Shown here piece after piece: positions 733 to 8,081 of a DNA stretch of 8,151 nucleotides (positions are counted from its first letter, which is position 1; every line of letters starts with the position of its first letter). Position numbers and translations under genes: made by a program. This DNA comes from a virus (lineage: Duplodnaviria > Heunggongvirae > Uroviricota > Caudoviricetes): the IMG/VR virus record IMGVR_UViG_2671180254_000013; one strand, 5' to 3'. The notes beneath the pieces were generated by a model that was given only the letters and a program-made list of their open reading frames with translations, did not search any database and had not been told where the DNA came from.

Positions 733-1923
733 ATGGAAAAATTCCACATGTTTGATGACCGTATTTATCAGATGACTAATGGCGTTAAAGCTGCCGACCG
801 TATTATTTACACTGTCATGTTGAATGAACAAAAGTTTTATCACGATAAGGGGCAATATTATACCCCTTCATATGCTCATCTTGGTCAGTATGCTGGAATC
901 ACAAGAACATCCGTGATTGCATGTATGAAACAACTTGAGGCACATGGTTTAATCAAGAAAACTAACGTTGCAAGCAATCAGTGTGTTATTAAAGTTTATT
1001 CACTTGATGAAGTACCGGAGGTTTTAACAGAGCTTACAGCTAAGGAAGCCAGAAAGGCAAAGCTGGAGTCTAAAGTTACTCAGTCAGTCAAGAAAGATGA
1101 NNNNNNNNNNNNNNNNNNNNNNNNNNNNNNNNNNNNNNNNNNNNNNNNNNNNNNNNNNNNNNNNNNNNNNNNNNNNNNNNNNNNNNNNNNNNNNNNNNNN
1201 NNNNNNNNNNNNNNNNNNNNNNNNNNNNNNNNNNNNNNNNNNNNNNNNNNNNNNNNNNNNNNNNNNNNNNNNNNNNNNNNNNNNNNNNNNNNNNNNNNNN
1301 NNNNNNNNNNNNNNNNNNNNNNNNNNNNNNNNNNNNNNNNNNNNNNNNNNNNNGCTAAAGAGGTCGTTAAAAAGGAAGATAAAATCTCTGATGTGATTGC
1401 TAGTAGTGACCATAAAAACACACAGTGCCCCGCCACTGATGATGAATTACCGGATGTTGACCTTGATGATGAAGAAGACCCTGAAAAGGAATTGAAACGT
1501 GAACAGCGTAAAGCAGAAATTAAAGAAAGATTCAGAAATGCGAAGCTAAAGAACAAGGTTAGTGACCTCGATGACTTTGATGATAGTGACGATGATTTTA
1601 CTTTTACACCAAAAAAGAAAACTCACACCGAGCCAAAGAAANNNNNNNNNNNNNNNNNNNNNNNNNNNNNNNNNNNNNNNNNNNNNNNNNNNNNNNNNNN
1701 NNNNNNNNNNNNNNNNNNNNNNNNNNNNNNNNNNNNNNNNNNNNNNNNNNNNNNNNNNNNNNNNNNNNNNNNNNNNNNNNNNNNNNNNNNNNNNNNNNNN
1801 NNNNNNNNNNNNNNNNNNNNNNNNNNNNNNNNNNNNNNNNNNNNNNNNNNNNNNNNNNNNNNNNNNNNNNNNNNNNNNNNNNNNNNNNNNNNNNNNNNNN
1901 NNNNGTCCACCAGCTACGATTAA
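733..1923 (+). CDS. Winged-helix (HTH_36 / replisome-organizer-like) DNA-binding protein with acidic low-complexity C-terminal region; putative replication initiator or regulator; interior masked by N runs, 3' end uncertain
   Basis: ATG at 733 preceded by AAAGGAAA (SD-like, ~8 nt spacer); the TTG at 676 in the ORF track is a less likely start. N-terminal ~120 aa (MEKFHMFDDRIYQMTNGVKAADRIIYTVMLNEQKFYHDKGQYYTPSYAHLGQYAGITRTSVIACMKQLEAHGLIKKT) matches the pattern of HTH_36-type winged-helix domains found in phage/plasmid replication proteins. The segment between the N runs (1354-1641) stays open in the same frame and encodes a highly acidic/charged stretch (DDELPDVDLDDEEDPEKEL...DLDDFDDSDDDFTF). 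Stop TAA at 1921-1923 is only 5 codons after the second N run, so the real stop could lie inside a gap. Confidence 0.5.
   Translation: MEKFHMFDDRIYQMTNGVKAADRIIYTVMLNEQKFYHDKGQYYTPSYAHLGQYAGITRTSVIACMKQLEAHGLIKKTNVASNQCVIKVYSLDEVPEVLTELTAKEARKAKLESKVTQSVKKDXXXXXXXXXXXXXXXXXXXXXXXXXXXXXXXXXXXXXXXXXXXXXXXXXXXXXXXXXXXXXXXXXXXXXXXXXXXXXXXXXXXXXAKEVVKKEDKISDVIASSDHKNTQCPATDDELPDVDLDDEEDPEKELKREQRKAEIKERFRNAKLKNKVSDLDDFDDSDDDFTFTPKKKTHTEPKKXXXXXXXXXXXXXXXXXXXXXXXXXXXXXXXXXXXXXXXXXXXXXXXXXXXXXXXXXXXXXXXXXXXXXXXXXXXXXXXXXXXXXXXXSTSYD
1101..1353. other. Run of 253 N (assembly gap or masked sequence) inside the winged-helix gene
   Basis: Directly visible. Reading frame on both sides is compatible with a single ORF if the gap length is exact (1/3 chance by coincidence). 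Confidence 0.95.
1642..1904. other. Run of 263 N (assembly gap or masked sequence) near the 3' end of the winged-helix gene
   Basis: Directly visible. Only 18 nt of real sequence follow before the in-frame stop, so frame continuity cannot be assessed. Confidence 0.95.
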
Positions 1924-1991: not shown

Positions 1992-2168
1992 CTATTTATT
2001 TACTGAAATCTCTATCTCAACACGAAGAAGTTTAAGTCGAATTGTAAGCTTTGTCTTTTTTGTAATGACTCGATTCATAACGCAAAACACCAATAGCACA
2101 ATAAATACCGCAAAGCCCAACGAGCTAAAACGATGAGATTCAATAATTGCTGTGAAAAAATCATGCAT
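1992..2168 (-). CDS. Small putative membrane protein (58 aa from the internal ATG; 68 aa if the GTG at 2198 is used)
   Basis: Only convincing minus-strand ORF. The ATG at 2168-2166 is preceded on the minus strand by AAGGA with a 6-nt spacer; product MHDFFTAIIESHRFSSLGFAVFIVLLVFCVMNRVITKK... has one hydrophobic helix-like segment. Convergent with the winged-helix gene and divergent from the RHH operon. Short, so confidence is low. Confidence 0.3.
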   Translation of the reverse strand: MHDFFTAIIESHRFSSLGFAVFIVLLVFCVMNRVITKKTKLTIRLKLLRVEIEISVNK

Positions 2169-2240
2169 TAATTTTCCTTTTGTGAAAGGAAACAGCACCT
2201 GTATCAGCCCCTACAACCATAGTATCATGTAAATGAGGTA

Positions 2241-2269
2241 CTGACAATATGTTAAATAGATGTTAAGAT
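2241..2269 (+). promoter_or_regulatory. Putative sigma70-type promoter for the RHH operon: -35 CTGACA (2241-2246), 17-bp spacer, -10 TAAGAT (2264-2269)
   Basis: Hexamers read from sequence, 4/6 match to TATAAT and 5/6 to TTGACA, correct spacing, ~35 nt upstream of the ATG at 2306. No experimental support. Confidence 0.3.
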
Positions 2270-2305
2270 TGTAGTATGAGTAAGAGATTTAAGGAGATTT
2301 TTACA

Positions 2306-2596
2306 ATGACTCACACAGTTACGCGCCTTTTGCCAGAGGCATTTGAACGACTGGCAGCAATCAAAGCCAAATATCCCGATATGAAGCACACAGCGCTTGT
2401 TGGGGAGATTTTAAAAGAGTCGGTAAACCTTAGCCCTTTCGATAACGTTAAGGGCGTCGCAGAGGGTTCTAAGGCCATCAGAATCACAACGGGCCAACTG
2501 GAACTACTCAAAGCACAGTCCGCAGTAGCAGGTTGCTCAATGATTCAGGTGTTAAGCGCTAAGGTCCATCAACTGGCGGATAGATTGGAGGTTTAA
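2306..2596 (+). CDS. Ribbon-helix-helix-like DNA-binding protein, apparently two RHH motifs in one 96-aa chain (TraY/CopG/antitoxin-like fold class)
   Basis: ATG at 2306 preceded by AAGGAG with 8-nt spacer (preferred over the in-frame ATG at 2276, which lacks an SD). Two segments each show a beta-strand of alternating residues followed by two short helices: HTVTRLLPEAFERLAAIKAKYPDMKHTALVGEILKES and KAIRITTGQLELLKAQSAVAGCSMIQVLSAKVHQLADRL (G-x-S turn in the second). Stop TAA overlaps the next start (TAATG). Confidence 0.55.
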   Translation: MTHTVTRLLPEAFERLAAIKAKYPDMKHTALVGEILKESVNLSPFDNVKGVAEGSKAIRITTGQLELLKAQSAVAGCSMIQVLSAKVHQLADRLEV

Positions 2597-2817
2597 TGTG
2601 TTATAGGTTCCAATATTCCACACTTGGCCGCCACCTAATCAGACAGAATTTAGCAGATGCTGAATTTGAAGATGTGACCCTCAAAGCAAACAAACGATTA
2701 AAACCCTCTCAAATCCACCAGCTTAAACACGAATTAAAGCCACTGGTAATACTCGACTATAACGACCCTGAACAGCTTGAGCAGGGAATTAAGCTTATTT
2801 CTGAATGGGGTGCTTGA
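2596..2817 (+). CDS. Hypothetical protein, 73 aa, translationally coupled to the RHH gene
   Basis: ATG at 2596 overlaps the upstream stop (TAATG); GGAGG at 2587-2591 just upstream; stop TGA at 2815-2817 overlaps the next start (TGATG). No recognisable motif. Confidence 0.5.
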   Translation: MCYRFQYSTLGRHLIRQNLADAEFEDVTLKANKRLKPSQIHQLKHELKPLVILDYNDPEQLEQGIKLISEWGA

Positions 2818-3032
2818 TGAAAACTATCACAGTACAACTTCAGACTAATAAAGCATTTCGTTATTTTGAAAACTTGCTTGAGTTATACGAAGGATGGGGA
2901 AGTATCCACGGCAAAGATGATATCTATCTTCACTTGTCAGCCCCTAACTATTCTCTGAAGACTCCGGTTAAGCAAAGCTGGTTAAAAGACTACGGTCACC
3001 AGATGGGGCTATTAGTCTCAGACTTGAGCTAA
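2817..3032 (+). CDS. Hypothetical protein, 71 aa (MKTITVQLQTNKAFRYFENLLELYEGWGS...), third gene of the coupled operon
   Basis: ATG at 2817 in a TGATG overlap with the upstream stop; GGGGTG SD-like element 6 nt upstream; the ORF-track start at 2805 is in the same frame but lacks an SD. No recognisable motif. Confidence 0.5.
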   Translation: MKTITVQLQTNKAFRYFENLLELYEGWGSIHGKDDIYLHLSAPNYSLKTPVKQSWLKDYGHQMGLLVSDLS

Positions 3033-3074
3033 AAACAGCAAAACATATCTCTCAGGCTTTACCAGACGCACCAG

Positions 3075-3150
3075 AAACGTTTTTAAGCCCCTAATCAGGG
3101 TAACTTAGGGAATCGCCTTAAGTGGTCTAAAAAAGGGGTTAAAACGTCTT
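3075..3150 (+). promoter_or_regulatory. Imperfect long-range inverted repeat (AAACGTTTTTAAGCCCCT 3075-3092 / AAGGGGTTAAAACGTCTT 3133-3150) between the RHH operon and the next gene; candidate operator or RNA structure
   Basis: Arms pair over ~14 bp with one or two bulges (AGGGG/CCCCT, TTAA/TTAA, AACGT/ACGTT). No T-run follows, so not a classic intrinsic terminator. Confidence 0.3.
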
Positions 3151-3178
3151 AGAATGCGATACAGGAAGGATTTTAAAA

Positions 3179-3484
3179 ATGAATTACCCAATGCAAATTA
3201 TGGTTGACCAAGAAACCATGAATTGGTTGATTGACCTGAACAGGTCGGGCTTTAATATCTATTTCATGCATTGTTTTGAAGCGTCAACGTATATTGACAA
3301 GCATATAATCAACGAAATTAAACTTGGTGACTATGTTCACAAGCTGGAAGTAACAGACCCATACAATAAGCGCTTTATCATTGAAGAGTGCAATCGACTT
3401 GATTTAAGCCCTGAGCAATTATTGAAGCTGAATGTATTCTTGACCTATCAGAATGAATTAAACCCTTACAGCGAGGTGATGTAA
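3179..3484 (+). CDS. Hypothetical protein, 101 aa
   Basis: ATG at 3179 preceded by AGGAAGGA with ~8-nt spacer; stop TAA overlaps the start of the next small ORF (TAATG). No recognisable motif. Confidence 0.55.
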   Translation: MNYPMQIMVDQETMNWLIDLNRSGFNIYFMHCFEASTYIDKHIINEIKLGDYVHKLEVTDPYNKRFIIEECNRLDLSPEQLLKLNVFLTYQNELNPYSEVM

Positions 3485-3561
3485 TGACACTCGTTATTCT
3501 CTGGATGACTTTAGGGTTATTTGTTGGTTGCTGGGTAGGTAATACGGTAAATAAGAATTGA
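3484..3561 (+). CDS. Small hydrophobic peptide, 25 aa (MTLVILWMTLGLFVGCWVGNTVNKN); single predicted transmembrane segment; candidate small membrane toxin / holin-like or membrane-modulating peptide
   Basis: ATG at 3484 overlaps the upstream stop (TAATG) and is preceded by GAGGTG with 5-nt spacer; 17 of the first 19 residues are hydrophobic or small. Below the length cut-off of the ORF track. Short ORFs are easily false positives; the RBS and coupling raise confidence. Confidence 0.4.
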   Translation: MTLVILWMTLGLFVGCWVGNTVNKN

Positions 3562-3585
3562 TGTTACCAATCTGTTAAAAAGCTG

Positions 3586-3640
3586 TTGACAAATAACCTT
3601 AAGCATGAGATGATGGTAATAGGGAAGAGCAACTCTTCCT
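3586..3640 (+). promoter_or_regulatory. Promoter-like element (-35 TTGACA 3586-3591, 17-bp spacer, extended -10 TGaGATGAT 3606-3614) immediately followed by a 7-bp-arm palindrome GGAAGAG-CAA-CTCTTCC (3623-3639), positioned like an operator
   Basis: Perfect -35 hexamer, correct spacing, TG-extended -10 with 4/6 match; the palindrome starts ~9 bp after the -10. The next long ORF starts ~350 nt downstream (3960), so the transcript would carry a long leader or be a non-coding RNA. Confidence 0.35.
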
Positions 3641-3680
3641 GAATTAAACTATTAATCATTCTACATCAATGATAGTTATT

Positions 3681-3736
3681 CTGAAAGGTGCAATGCTTTT
3701 CGCTACATGACCTTTCAGGTTAGTCTGAGAGGTCAT
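3681..3736 (+). ncRNA. Two overlapping, mutually exclusive stem-loops (9-bp stem 3681-3689/3710-3718; 7-bp stem 3707-3713/3730-3736); candidate regulatory leader / attenuator-like RNA element or sRNA
   Basis: Both inverted repeats are perfect (CTGAAAGGT/ACCTTTCAG and ATGACCT/AGGTCAT) and share bases 3710-3713, so only one can form at a time. They lie in a ~400-nt region with no ORF longer than ~19 codons. RNA identity is inferred, not shown. Confidence 0.3.
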
Positions 3737-3761
3737 CTCGAAAAGTACTCTTGTTCATTCG

Positions 3762-3784
3762 TTTGAATCCTTTTTGAATCCTTT
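3762..3784 (+). repeat. Tandem direct repeat TTTGAATCCTTT / TTGAATCCTTT (2 copies)
   Basis: Read directly from the sequence, inside the long non-coding region upstream of the 236-aa gene. Confidence 0.5.
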
Positions 3785-3959
3785 AGATGTTTTAATTTCT
3801 TCACCTTATGAATGGCCCTTTATAAGAAATTATCTAGGGCTATTCAGCTTTTAAAAAGCATACTTGGCAAACCGCCTTTTAAGTCTCTTCTAAGTTTAGA
3901 TAGGCTGTCAGGTGTGCTTTTTAAAAACTGAAACACTTCCGCTTAGAAGAGGAAAAGCA

Positions 3960-4670
3960 ATGACAAATGATATTTACATTAATGGCAAAGTGATTGATAG
4001 CTTCAGTGACTGGTCGCCACAGACTGAACATCCAGCTATCACTATTCAGCGTAAAGAGCATGACAAGCGTATTGAGCTTGAGCAATCGCTAAAGATGTCA
4101 CCAAAAACAACCATCTTTGTGTCTCCTGAGCCTCAAGAGATGCCTGATATTTGCAAGAGTGAAGCATTACTTGAGCTTGAAAAGAAATATTACCAACTGC
4201 TGAAAGAACAGCGCCTTAGATTAGATGACGCTTACAGCAAAGTTACCTTGATGCAATCAGCTATTGAGCCGTCAGAATTTGAGATTCAGGATGAATTGTC
4301 ACAGAAACCATTTGTCTATTACCAATACGAAGATAATGATGGTTTTGGTACTTTTCAAGAAAACGTCGCAGCCGTGATTAGTAGTCTTCCTGCTGGACAT
4401 CGAATTGTGAAGATGGTTAAGGCATCAAGAGGTGCTGGTCAGTTTATTTACATGACTAATAAGAGCGATGAAGAACTCGCTGAAATTGCTAGACAGAACA
4501 TCTTGGCATCACGTAACAAGCAACTTGATAATGTTAAGTTGTATCTCTCAAGAGAGCTTCAGGCTATGAAAGAGCTTGTGAAAGAATATGAAGATGCTAA
4601 GAAGATTGCTATGCAGGCTGATATTGAGCAGCTTACGAAGATTTCTAGCAAATATGCAAAGGCTATTTAA
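3960..4670 (+). CDS. Hypothetical protein, 236 aa, charged and coiled-coil-rich C-terminal half; function unknown (not recognisably a tail tube or tail chaperone)
   Basis: ATG at 3960 preceded by AGAGGA with 6-nt spacer (the GTG at 3912 in the ORF track is a less likely start); stop TAA at 4668-4670. No motif I can name. Confidence 0.6.
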   Translation: MTNDIYINGKVIDSFSDWSPQTEHPAITIQRKEHDKRIELEQSLKMSPKTTIFVSPEPQEMPDICKSEALLELEKKYYQLLKEQRLRLDDAYSKVTLMQSAIEPSEFEIQDELSQKPFVYYQYEDNDGFGTFQENVAAVISSLPAGHRIVKMVKASRGAGQFIYMTNKSDEELAEIARQNILASRNKQLDNVKLYLSRELQAMKELVKEYEDAKKIAMQADIEQLTKISSKYAKAI

Positions 4671-4901: not shown

Positions 4902-4999
4902 CAAGATTGGTTGGGTGAAAATCTACGGGAGAGATTATCGAGTGATATCGGTAGTCTTTCCCTTTTTCGTATATGAACACTTAAAGAGGTGAAACATGA

Positions 5000-7180
5000 A
5001 TGAGCAAATTCACAGTTGATAGTTTTATCGTTGAACTTAGTTTCAGTGAAAACGTTATTAAGGGCTTGCAAAGAGTTGAAAAGGCAGCTTTGCAGTCAGC
5101 ACAAAGAATTGAACGCAATTTGAATAGAGCGTTTAAGGTCGATACCAAGCAACTTGACAGCAATCTGACAAGTTCTTTAGGGCAGCTTGAAAGGAAGTTT
5201 AATAAGACCTTTGACAAGATTGAGCAGAGAGCAAGAAGCACAAAAGCATTTCAGTTTGCCACCAGATTTAATGACACTGTTAATCCTCCAAAACAATCAA
5301 GGCAACCACGAATTAGCGGAAACAGAGCAATCACAGCAGCGCATAGCGTGAATATGTCTAAGCTTGGTGATATTAATCCGCTGATGGCTAAAATGTTTAA
5401 AGCACAGTATTACAGCTTAAGCGGTAAGGCTGGTAATATTGGAAGTGAAAAGTTTAACGCTGAACTTGCAAAATTAAATCAATCTCTTCGTGAAACGTTG
5501 AATAAACTCAGGTCACAGACAAAGACCGCCAGCATTAACAATACAAGCGACGCATTTAATAATCTTGCAAGCAATGCGATTAAATTATCTGGTGCATTTT
5601 ACTCTGTGATGGGTGCTCTTAACGCTTACAAGGCCATTATGAATGCAGGTCTTAAACGAGATTCCGCACAGAGAGCCGCTAAGTTTGTACTTGGTGATAA
5701 AGCATCTGAAGCTGAGGTATTTATTCGAAATTTAGCAGACAAGACAGGTCTTAATATCTCTGAAGGGCTATCAAGCTACGCTAAGTTTGCAGCAGGTGCT
5801 CAGGGTTCTATGTCACAGGAACAGACACAGGAGCTATTTGGTAATGCAACGGCTATGAGTCGCTTAATGGGGCTTTCTAACGATGAGCTAAACGGCATTT
5901 TGAGAGCATTTGAGCAGATGGCGAGCAAGGGCAAGATTCAGGCTGAGGAATTACGTGGGCAGTTAGGTGACCGTATGGCTGGTGCATTTAAGCTATTCGC
6001 TGAAGCATTGGGTATGACTGCTACAGAGCTTGATGCAGCCATGAAAAACGGGAAGGTACTTTCCGCTGATACTCTCCCTAAAGTCGCTAAACAGATGGGC
6101 TTGATGATTGATAAAGCGGGTGGCTGGGCTGAAGTCACTAAGAGCACTCAGACAGCTTTAGGTAAGTTAGCAAACAATTGGGATGATACGATGGTGAAAA
6201 TCTTCTCAGGTTCACAGGATGAGCTAAACGGCTTCTTATCCAGCCTGAGTAACCTGCTTAGTGAAATGGGGATGAGTTCTTCTATCGCTGGTGATGCTAT
6301 CGGTGGACTTATCGACATGCTTAAAGCTGGTGTAGATGATATTCGCGTATTCAATAACACCATTGAAGGCTGGATTTTACAGACTAAGAAGTTCTATTAC
6401 AGCCTTGATGACACTAAACGAAAACTACTTGATGAAGTCGGTGATGGTTTTATCAACTTCGTCAAAGGTCTTGCTATAGCGTTATCTGCAAAGACGCTAT
6501 TCAGTGCTACTACAGGGGTTATGAACCTGACAAGAGCAATCACAACGTTAGGTACAAGAGCTAATCAGGTGGCTGGTCAGGTAGCTACTGGTAAAGGTGG
6601 TGGAAAACTGAAAGGTGTAGCTGGTGGTGTAGGTAGTGCTCTTGCAATTGGTTATGCTGATGACGGTTATGAAACAGCGTTAGCATTAGCTTCAATGATT
6701 CCACAAATCAGAGGCGTCACTCTTGGTTTATATGCATTGAAGAAAGCACTGGATTTTATGAATCAGGAAGTAGTCAAAAACGCTAATATGCATCCGTCTG
6801 GGGTAGGTGTGGGTAGTGACTTTAATCCCGTGTATTCTGGTGACCCTAATAAACCGAATATGATTAACGAAGGATGGAGTAGAATTTTTAGTTCAATGGG
6901 TGAATTGTTTAACAATGCCACAATGAATATTGCAAGATTCAATCATCCAGAGTTAAACAACATTAAGCAAGATTCAGCATTAACGAGTGCAGATATTCAG
7001 GGTCTGAGGGATGAAATTAGTGCTTTGAGTAAGCGTATTCAGGAGCCAGTGAAAGTTTCACTTGGTGGTCAAGTTGTCGTTCGACCAGATGAACCATCTT
7101 TCTTTACTTTCAATCAATCAGCTAATGACCAGTTCACGCAGGATATGCTCTTAAGTTCAAGCTATCCAGAGGAAGAATGA
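5000..7180 (+). CDS. Phage tail tape measure protein (726 aa)
   Basis: ATG at 5000 preceded by AGAGGTGA with ~6-nt spacer. Alpha-helical, coiled-coil-like N-terminus. Central segment EELRGQLGDRMAGAFKLFAEALGMTATELDAAMKNGKVLSADTLPKVAKQMG matches the conserved tape-measure domain pattern of lambda-H-like proteins. Gly/Ala-rich hydrophobic segment (AGQVATGKGGGKLKGVAGGVGSALAIGY...LALASMIPQIRGVTLGLYAL) near the C-terminus is typical of tape measure proteins. No obvious lysozyme or peptidase motif. Confidence 0.75.
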   Translation: MSKFTVDSFIVELSFSENVIKGLQRVEKAALQSAQRIERNLNRAFKVDTKQLDSNLTSSLGQLERKFNKTFDKIEQRARSTKAFQFATRFNDTVNPPKQSRQPRISGNRAITAAHSVNMSKLGDINPLMAKMFKAQYYSLSGKAGNIGSEKFNAELAKLNQSLRETLNKLRSQTKTASINNTSDAFNNLASNAIKLSGAFYSVMGALNAYKAIMNAGLKRDSAQRAAKFVLGDKASEAEVFIRNLADKTGLNISEGLSSYAKFAAGAQGSMSQEQTQELFGNATAMSRLMGLSNDELNGILRAFEQMASKGKIQAEELRGQLGDRMAGAFKLFAEALGMTATELDAAMKNGKVLSADTLPKVAKQMGLMIDKAGGWAEVTKSTQTALGKLANNWDDTMVKIFSGSQDELNGFLSSLSNLLSEMGMSSSIAGDAIGGLIDMLKAGVDDIRVFNNTIEGWILQTKKFYYSLDDTKRKLLDEVGDGFINFVKGLAIALSAKTLFSATTGVMNLTRAITTLGTRANQVAGQVATGKGGGKLKGVAGGVGSALAIGYADDGYETALALASMIPQIRGVTLGLYALKKALDFMNQEVVKNANMHPSGVGVGSDFNPVYSGDPNKPNMINEGWSRIFSSMGELFNNATMNIARFNHPELNNIKQDSALTSADIQGLRDEISALSKRIQEPVKVSLGGQVVVRPDEPSFFTFNQSANDQFTQDMLLSSSYPEEE

Positions 7181-7192
7181 TTTAACGGTGTT

Positions 7193-8081
<889 letters not shown>

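Follow-up and report, generated by a model that had tools for sequence, protein, structure and literature searches.

On balance, we favour the view that g1, the first of three overlapping small genes in the 8,151-nucleotide stretch of viral DNA analysed here (the window), encodes a pseudo-dimeric ribbon-helix-helix (RHH) regulator heading a rightward operon, and that the two genes behind it, g2 and g3, encode accessory regulatory or targeting factors. Comparison of related loci indicates that an island of about 11 kb has g1 and the g1 promoter among its core components, and that the DNA from the g1 stop codon to the ribosome-binding site of the conserved gene g4 is a swappable cassette, of which g2 and g3 are one version.

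Gene organisation and translational coupling

The genes and translation signals of the rightward operon were located as follows.

2291..2296, plus strand: Shine-Dalgarno sequence AAGGAG of g1, 9 nt 5′ of the ATG, read from the sequence
2306..2596, plus strand: g1, predicted 96-aa single-chain tandem ribbon-helix-helix protein; island core gene
2587-2591, plus strand: ribosome-binding site GGAGG of g2, inside the end of g1
2596..2817, plus strand: g2, 73-aa orphan ("G2 domain"), first gene of the type A cassette
2817..3032, plus strand: g3, 71-aa orphan ("G3 domain"), second gene of the type A cassette
3033..3178, plus strand: spacer between g3 and g4, cassette-specific and non-coding; the cassette ends on the right at the conserved g4 ribosome-binding site and start codon region (AGGATTTTAAAAATG)
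3179..3484, plus strand: g4, conserved 101-aa island gene with two allelic forms across islands

The original prediction had described three open reading frames joined by 1-nt stop/start junctions, and all of these are present in the sequence: the TAA stop codon of g1 (2594-2596) overlaps the ATG of g2 (2596-2598) as TAATG, and the TGA stop codon of g2 (2815-2817) overlaps the ATG of g3 (2817-2819) as TGATG. Translation of g1 starts at 2306 (MTHTVTR...), and M-x-HTVTR opens 41 of 41 homologue clusters. A start of g1 at 2241 or 2276 was not upheld; position 2241 is the beginning of the -35 element of a promoter-like site, and the ATG at 2276, upstream of the g1 start, is lost in relatives.

All three are genuine genes under purifying selection and not chance open reading frames, because g1 has a dN/dS of about 0.2, and because g2 and g3 have kept amino acid identities of 52% and 49%, respectively, between the type A and type B cassettes described below while the synonymous sites are saturated (pS 0.75-0.83, with pN about 0.3). 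PGAP left g2 unannotated in every relative examined, and both type B genes as well; standard annotation misses genuine conserved small genes at this position.

The gene after g1 begins at the g1 stop codon in 52 of 52 loci of the g1 lineage and of the lineage of P0065, a distant g1 homologue. In the lineage of a second distant homologue, P0069, the next gene starts 2 nt past the stop codon of the g1 counterpart (g1′). A conserved GGRGG-TTT-(A/G)ATG junction closes g1 and is also the left boundary of the cassette; by way of it, whatever gene succeeds g1 would be translationally coupled to g1.

The description of the locus as a three-gene operon stands for the three coupled genes, but not for its right end: no terminator-like site was found between g3 and g4, and for this reason transcription probably runs on from g3 into g4. 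The sequence of the g3-g4 spacer varies with the cassette type and only its last 20 nt or so are shared; it gave no Rfam match, and its fold z-score of -1.6 is not significant.

Predicted fold and family of g1

The claim that g1 is a tandem RHH protein gained support from an AlphaFold2 model built on a shallow, 23-sequence alignment (mean pLDDT 62, moderate confidence). In this model two beta-alpha-alpha units are packed as a pseudo-dimer in one chain, which is the arrangement that defines the tandem single-chain subtype of the RHH (MetJ/Arc) superfamily. The first unit consists of a strand (residues 3-7) and two helices (10-22 and 28-35), the second of a strand (57-61) and two helices (62-75 and 79-93), and a low-confidence linker covers residues 38-55. 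The best structural matches to the model were TraY of the F plasmid and single-chain Arc. The strand residues HTVTR and (I)RIT(T), the presumed DNA contacts, do not vary within the family and are also kept in P0065 and P0069, about 30-40% identical to g1 by eye.

Sequence searches placed g1 in no described family. It had no match in Pfam (TraY model included), NCBIfam or PHROGs at E values up to 1, a PDB sequence-profile search returned noise only, and no curated RHH family profile (RHH_1, CopG, Arc, TraY and similar) matched it. An internal-repeat test with hhalign found no significant similarity between the two halves of g1; the duplication is therefore seen at the fold level only. The family is tiny, with 41 clusters at 61% identity or more, and an exhaustive HMM search recovered 8 representative clusters among 1.84 billion proteins. 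All members whose context was examined lie inside the same kind of island. By itself, g1 would add one more single-chain double-RHH regulator to TraY and AvtR, which is useful and unsurprising.

The divergent promoter and a candidate operator

A promoter scan, a search for repeats and comparison with related loci identified the following features upstream of g1.

1992..2168, minus strand: small membrane-protein gene, 58 aa, single-pass, beginning MHDFFTAIIESHRFSSLGFAVFIVLLVFCVM; divergent from g1, with which it has the promoter/operator region in common
2211..2274, no strand assigned: divergent promoter and putative operator region, from the promoter scan, repeats and conservation across 8 loci
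2241-2246 (-35, CTGACA) and an extended -10, TGTTAAGAT, ending at 2269, plus strand: rightward promoter, from the promoter scan
Complement of 2242-2247 (-35) and complement of 2219-2224 (-10), minus strand: leftward promoter, from the promoter scan
2228 (ATGTAA), 2249 and 2260 (both ATGTTAA): ATGT(T)A repeats, spaced 21 and 11 bp apart
2211 and 2269: inverted repeat CTACAA/TTGTAG

The rightward promoter-like site consists of CTGACA, a spacer of 17 nt and TAAGAT with a TG extension. The two promoter-like sites lie back to back with overlapping -35 hexamers, and the ATGT(T)A repeats fall inside them, occupying the leftward spacer and, on the rightward side, both the spacer and the extended -10. 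In a comparison of 8 loci, the approximately 110 bp between the membrane-protein gene and g1 were the most conserved DNA of the neighbourhood.

The pair ATGTTA-N5-ATGTTA was found 49 times in 1.57 Mb of related loci when both strands were counted, once per locus, and all 49 occurrences are accounted for by this promoter or by its counterpart in the P0069 lineage. Members of the g1 lineage have the pair some 57 nt upstream of g1, whereas L016 and L019 have it at the non-collinear promoter of the operon that carries g1′. The P0069-lineage operon has g1′ in second place, and the repeats, in the same 11-bp phase, are found just upstream of a differently arranged promoter (TTGACA-17-TAGTAT). They are absent from the P0065 lineage.

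Since the repeats are conserved, restricted to promoters and recur in the P0069 lineage, we propose that g1 recognises the ATGT(T)A repeats, whose phasing is close to one turn of the helix, and represses both back-to-back promoters. It would thereby autoregulate its own operon together with the divergent membrane-protein gene, and g2 and g3 would be made in step with g1 and probably tune the expression of the island or its response to a helper phage. The repeats are candidate g1 subsites; they could also be the sites of another factor.

The 58-aa membrane protein occurs in related islands as four alleles, roughly 35-50% identical by eye, which all keep an ESxRF...LLV...IxK motif, the distant island L015 included. 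Its gene is annotated by PGAP in L005, and the protein matched no family.

The genes after g1 form an exchangeable cassette

The trio is not conserved as a unit. A 901-nt query covering the three genes matched 127 of 5,426 complete E. coli genomes, only 20 of which carry all three; in most of the other matching genomes the similarity ends exactly at the g1 stop codon. Five kinds of cassette were recognised at this position. Genome counts below refer to complete E. coli genomes and were made for types A, B, C1 and C2; type D was counted in the 59 readable loci only.

Type A: g2 and g3, as in the window; 20 genomes; 11 of 59 readable loci, including the window
Type B: two genes (76 and 69 aa, ATGA overlap) that differ from the type A pair by about 50%; 36 genomes; 10 of 59 loci
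Type C1: G2-like domain fused to a resolvase-type HTH; 57 genomes; 16 of 59 loci
Type C2: G2-like domain fused to a resolvase-type HTH; 125 genomes; 15 of 59 loci
Type D: g3-like gene alone; 6 of 59 loci

The combination of g2 and g3 is the rarest of the four counted E. coli types. Proteins of type C are single chains of 141 or 128 aa, and the type D gene is sometimes preceded by a small open reading frame with an HNH-type motif, recognised by eye.

Profile comparison with hhalign connects these types. The match between g2 and the N-terminal domain of type C (62% probability, E 7e-5, against 1% or less for controls, with two to six sequences) makes a modest case for their homology. The C-terminal part of type C matched the HTH_7 domains found elsewhere in the island with 92% probability, and Pfam HTH_28 at E 0.003, and g3 matched the type D gene with 97.6% probability. 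The slot can be described as a recombination cassette that would draw on three modules, namely the G2 and G3 domains and an HTH of the resolvase type.

In the 20 genomes that carry it, type A DNA shows 97.5-99.8% identity, against as little as about 70% nucleotide identity for the g1 next to it. Every cassette type was found beside both major g1 alleles; therefore, the cassettes recombine independently of g1.

The lack of any recognisable motif in g2 and g3, noted at the outset, was borne out by wider searches. Searching a collection of 5.8 billion proteins with g2 retrieved near-identical homologues only, and the same collection held no relative of g2 or g3 outside these islands. Neither gene matched an entry in Pfam, PHROGs, NCBIfam or PADLOC, PDB sequence-profile searches gave noise or nothing, tblastn against 50,697 phage records gave no match, and a structure search with g3 gave no match to DNA-binding folds. 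The PADLOC defence models likewise matched none of the genes g1-g6, the type C proteins, the 97-aa protein encoded in the island or the small membrane protein.

These results bear on the reading of the trio as a type II toxin-antitoxin or abortive-infection module, in which g1 would be the antitoxin and autorepressor and g2, g3 or both the toxin. We found nothing in its favour and regard it as very improbable. Searches of Pfam, NCBIfam, PADLOC and PHROGs assigned neither g2 nor g3 to a toxin family, and no toxin fold was found. In the model, two RHH units and the linker account for the whole of the 96-aa g1, which leaves no C-terminal extension for binding and neutralising a toxin. Nor are g1 and the cassette inherited together: type A cassettes that are 99-100% identical stand beside g1 variants that are 100% and about 71% identical, a divergence of which cognate pairs are intolerant. 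Furthermore, the commonest alternative cassette is a G2-HTH fusion, and strain 2013C-4830 has a frameshifted g1 with intact g2 and g3. We conclude that g2 and g3 are probably neither toxins nor defence effectors.

What points to an accessory regulatory or targeting role for g2 and g3, as in our preferred reading, is the make-up of the commonest cassette, in which G2 and a DNA-binding HTH form one protein. This, the only functional hint, is architectural: G2 is most often fused to an HTH, and when G2 is separate it is G3 that holds the HTH position.

The pace of exchange speaks against this reading. Rapid turnover of cassettes is also expected of proteins engaged in an arms race with a phage, rather than of housekeeping co-regulators.

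The island resembles a satellite of Felix O1-type phages

From left to right, the island carries genes for a small serine recombinase, a Dam methylase with a C-terminal HTH_7 domain and an HTH (rep-like) protein, the 97-aa gene, the small membrane-protein gene (minus strand), g1, the cassette, g4, a gene of about 236 aa, a gene of about 70 aa, and genes for a tape measure protein (PF20155), a Dit-like protein (PF21821) and a large serine recombinase (minus strand). It was found in at least about 240 of the 5,426 complete E. coli genomes, as well as in E. albertii, Shigella and Citrobacter, and at no fewer than four insertion sites: wrbA, between yciI and tonB, yecE and mdtG.

The tape measure and Dit-like proteins are its only virion proteins, and there is no capsid gene. 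The Dit-like protein shares 72% identity with garuso gp119, whose gene is the next after the Felixounavirus tape measure gene, and the phage records with homologues of the Dit-like protein belong mainly to Ounavirinae-type phages. A stretch of about 430 nt of the island is also about 92% identical to phages of this type.

Three metagenome contigs (L039, L044 and L052) have the length of the island and are circularly permuted. In L039 and L052 the intact recombinase end is joined straight to the left end of the island, and in L044 the end-to-end junction falls inside the recombinase gene. Therefore, the element occurs as an excised circle or as a concatemer. The island combines attributes expected of an integrated phage satellite, namely an integrase of its own, replication genes, a partial set of phage-related virion genes and excision. 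Judged by its gene content, it looks like a putative satellite of Felix O1-type phages that is mobilised by the large serine recombinase. No paper on this island or on a satellite of Felix O1 was found in the literature searched.

The excised-circle junctions are one reason to consider a different role for g1, as a TraY-like, DNA-bending architectural factor acting at the replication origin, the packaging site or attP of the island; the cassette proteins would then be recombination directionality or packaging specificity factors and not transcriptional ones. TraY is the best structural match of g1, type C has a resolvase-type HTH, and a large serine recombinase needs an excision (RDF) function, for which no gene is annotated in the island. 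Against this, the conserved repeats coincide with promoter elements and not with attP or the repeat-rich region at 3485-3911, the island has neither relaxase nor oriT, and the cassette type is uncorrelated with the integration site or the recombinase. We consider this role improbable. Islands with type A were found at wrbA, tonB/yciI and mdtG, and tonB/yciI is occupied by islands of types A, B, C1 and D; the cassette as a source of the RDF was downgraded because its type does not track the integration site.

The main rival to the explanation that we favour, though one we find rather unlikely, is that g2, g3 and the other cassettes are effectors or sensors aimed at proteins of a Felix O1-type helper phage, with g1 setting their expression. 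Binding of phage proteins would trigger the island, or would interfere with or redirect phage development, and the diversity of cassettes would reflect an arms race with helper variants. Consistent with this are the at least five cassette types with their sharp boundaries and recent horizontal exchange, the presence in the island of a tape measure gene and of a Dit-like protein so close to its Felixounavirus homologue, the stretch of about 430 nt matching Felixounavirus-type phages, the circularised contigs of island length in metagenomes, and the swapping of modules by analogous putative E. coli satellites in conflict with phages (PMC10448857). On the other hand, g2 and g3 have no homologue in the 50,697 phage records or in structure libraries, the cassette type is unlinked to the length of the tape measure protein or to the g4 allele, and the HTH in the commonest cassette suggests that the targets are DNA and not protein.

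Taking the island as a whole, we tentatively suggest that it may represent a family, as yet undescribed, of elements in E. coli and related bacteria that live as satellites or tail-assembly parasites on virulent phages of the Felix O1 type (Ounavirinae), in which the slot after g1 would be a specificity hotspot with shuffled modules for sensing or hijacking the helper. If this is true, the G2, G3 and HTH modules would be new protein families with a new mode of satellite-phage interaction. The context outweighs g1 itself: the island is compact, widespread and mobile, and it carries copies of Felix O1-type tape measure and distal-tail genes. Biocontrol and phage therapy make wide use of phages of this type. 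Should the island prove to be a satellite of these phages or an element that interferes with their tails, the g1 promoter is a likely control point, and the slot occupied by g2 and g3 is the place to look for determinants of helper specificity.

Comparison with known systems

TraY of the F plasmid, a tandem RHH accessory protein of the relaxosome, is encoded by the first gene of the tra operon. It has no sequence similarity to g1, which is not matched by the Pfam model of TraY. The contexts differ too: the island is without oriT, relaxase and T4SS or conjugation genes, and the repeats near g1 overlap promoter elements. AvtR, the tandem-RHH regulator of an archaeal lipothrixvirus, is unlike g1 in sequence and in genomic context.

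Autorepressors of the Arc/Mnt (P22 immI), CopG and omega types have the same fold as each half of g1 in the model. They also resemble g1 in that a small RHH gene stands first in its operon, with short phased repeats over its own promoter. They differ in that each of their chains has one RHH unit and dimerises with another; in g1 two units are joined covalently, and its operator binding is our inference.

Type II toxin-antitoxin systems (MazEF, VapBC, ParDE and TacAT) share with this locus a first gene of the RHH type, overlapping small genes and a location on a mobile element. Unlike these systems, the locus has no toxin family or fold, no tail on g1 and no co-inheritance of g1 allele and cassette.

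A parallel in overall organisation is seen with putative E. coli satellites that encode tape measure and baseplate proteins (Barth et al. 2023, NAR Genom Bioinform, PMC10448857). Most of those elements use a tyrosine integrase at tRNA sites; they also have a gene for a capsid protein, and were linked to Justusliebigvirus phages (PMC10448857). They parallel the island in having a small serine recombinase, an HTH replication-type protein with a swappable N-terminal domain, small genes including an RHH-like open reading frame (by sequence pattern) and a gene of about 68 aa, then a tape measure protein, a baseplate protein and an integrase.

Identity of the island with these satellites was considered and rejected. 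Compared with the example in strain C2, protein homology is limited to the small recombinase (31%), and Table S6 of Barth et al. lacks the four carriers of the island that were looked up, E24377A among them, and lists strain C2 at a different locus only. The island is further set apart from them by its large serine recombinase, by the lack of a capsid gene, and by a Dit-like protein whose phage matches are mainly to the Ounavirinae type.

Island organisation and circular forms

The whole window lies within a mobile island of about 11 kb, which was also found at related loci (L001, 11000-22700; L002-L007 and L014-L019) and contains genes for a small serine recombinase, a Dam-HTH_7 protein, a rep-like HTH protein, a tape measure protein, a Dit-like protein and a large serine recombinase. 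In E. coli the island is inserted at wrbA, yciI/tonB, yecE or mdtG, and homologues of the tandem-RHH regulator gene g1 are also on record from E. albertii, Shigella and Citrobacter. The literature searched yielded no account of the island.

Three metagenome contigs of island length, L039 (11.5 kb), L052 and L044, show circular permutation. Two of them, L039 and L052, have the left end of the island fused directly to the recombinase end, forming an attP-like junction, which indicates that the island exists as excised circles or concatemers. An odd junction inside the recombinase gene is common to L044 and locus L061.

Features of the island outside the g1-g4 genes (window coordinates unless a locus is named; strand where assigned)
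3-347, part of the Dam methylase gene, which extends past the left end of the window
742-1641, rep-like HTH protein, N-masked at 1101-1353 and 1642-1904
1992-2168, minus strand, conserved gene for a 58-aa single-pass membrane protein, divergent from g1
3485-3911, repeat-rich non-coding gap of 427 bp between g4 and g5
3586-3614, strong promoter-like site in the gap
3762-3783, tandem TTTGAATCCTT x2 in the gap
3843-3869 / 3906-3932, 27-nt inverted repeat of the gap
3912-4670 (L001, 16840-17550), gene for a protein of about 236 aa
4927-4962, plus strand, terminator-like hairpin (15-bp stem, then a T-run) between g6 and the tape measure gene
5000-7180, tape measure protein gene, 726 aa
7337-8030, Dit-like pseudogene
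L016, 8285-8557 and L018, 8333-8557, 90-aa ORF with an HNH-type motif (...FRDGNKRNCHPNNL)

Tail genes and the right end

The tape measure protein shares 33% identity with that of the Felixounavirus phage garuso, and in relatives the Dit-like protein shares 72% with garuso gp119. The window's own Dit-like gene is a pseudogene that carries a deletion of about 114 nt and a frameshift near 7483-7491, and the similarity stops at about 8030. The last 130 nt or so of the window match a repeated sequence, found on many plasmids as well, which is probably of IS type.

Small membrane protein, intergenic region and HNH genes

The 58-aa membrane protein occurs as four alleles, with roughly 35-50% identity as judged by eye, and among the relatives examined its gene was annotated by PGAP in only one. 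If the module has a toxic or lysis-type product, this protein is a better candidate for it than the products of the cassette genes g2 and g3.

The gap downstream of the conserved island gene g4 may serve as an origin, a packaging site or a further regulatory region. The hairpin at 4927-4962 is the only strong terminator-like one on the plus strand 3' of the g1 promoter, and may split two transcription units.

In the distant island lineage the 90-aa ORF is inserted between the g1 homologue (g1') and the cassette, and L018 has an HNH_3/AP2 gene near the Dam gene as well; together these suggest homing-endonuclease traffic in the islands.

Rep-like and 236-aa proteins compared with reported satellites

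Two reading frames at the left end were discarded: an ORF at 204-350 with an HTH_7 match is no gene of its own but encodes the Dam methylase's C-terminal HTH, and a 415-aa 'ORF' at 676-1923 is an artefact that reads through masked runs. The second mask also hides most of a 97-aa gene 3' of the rep-like gene. Compared with L001, the N-terminal domain of the rep-like protein is variable (44% identity) and its C-terminal part conserved (86%), a pattern that resembles the swapping of RepA N-domains reported in other satellites.

The protein of about 236 aa is labelled 'transposase' by PGAP in several genomes. It has no match in Pfam, PHROG, NCBIfam or PADLOC. The label is probably wrong, since the place of its gene in the island is the one taken by the capsid gene in the putative E. 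coli phage satellites of Barth et al. (PMC10448857).
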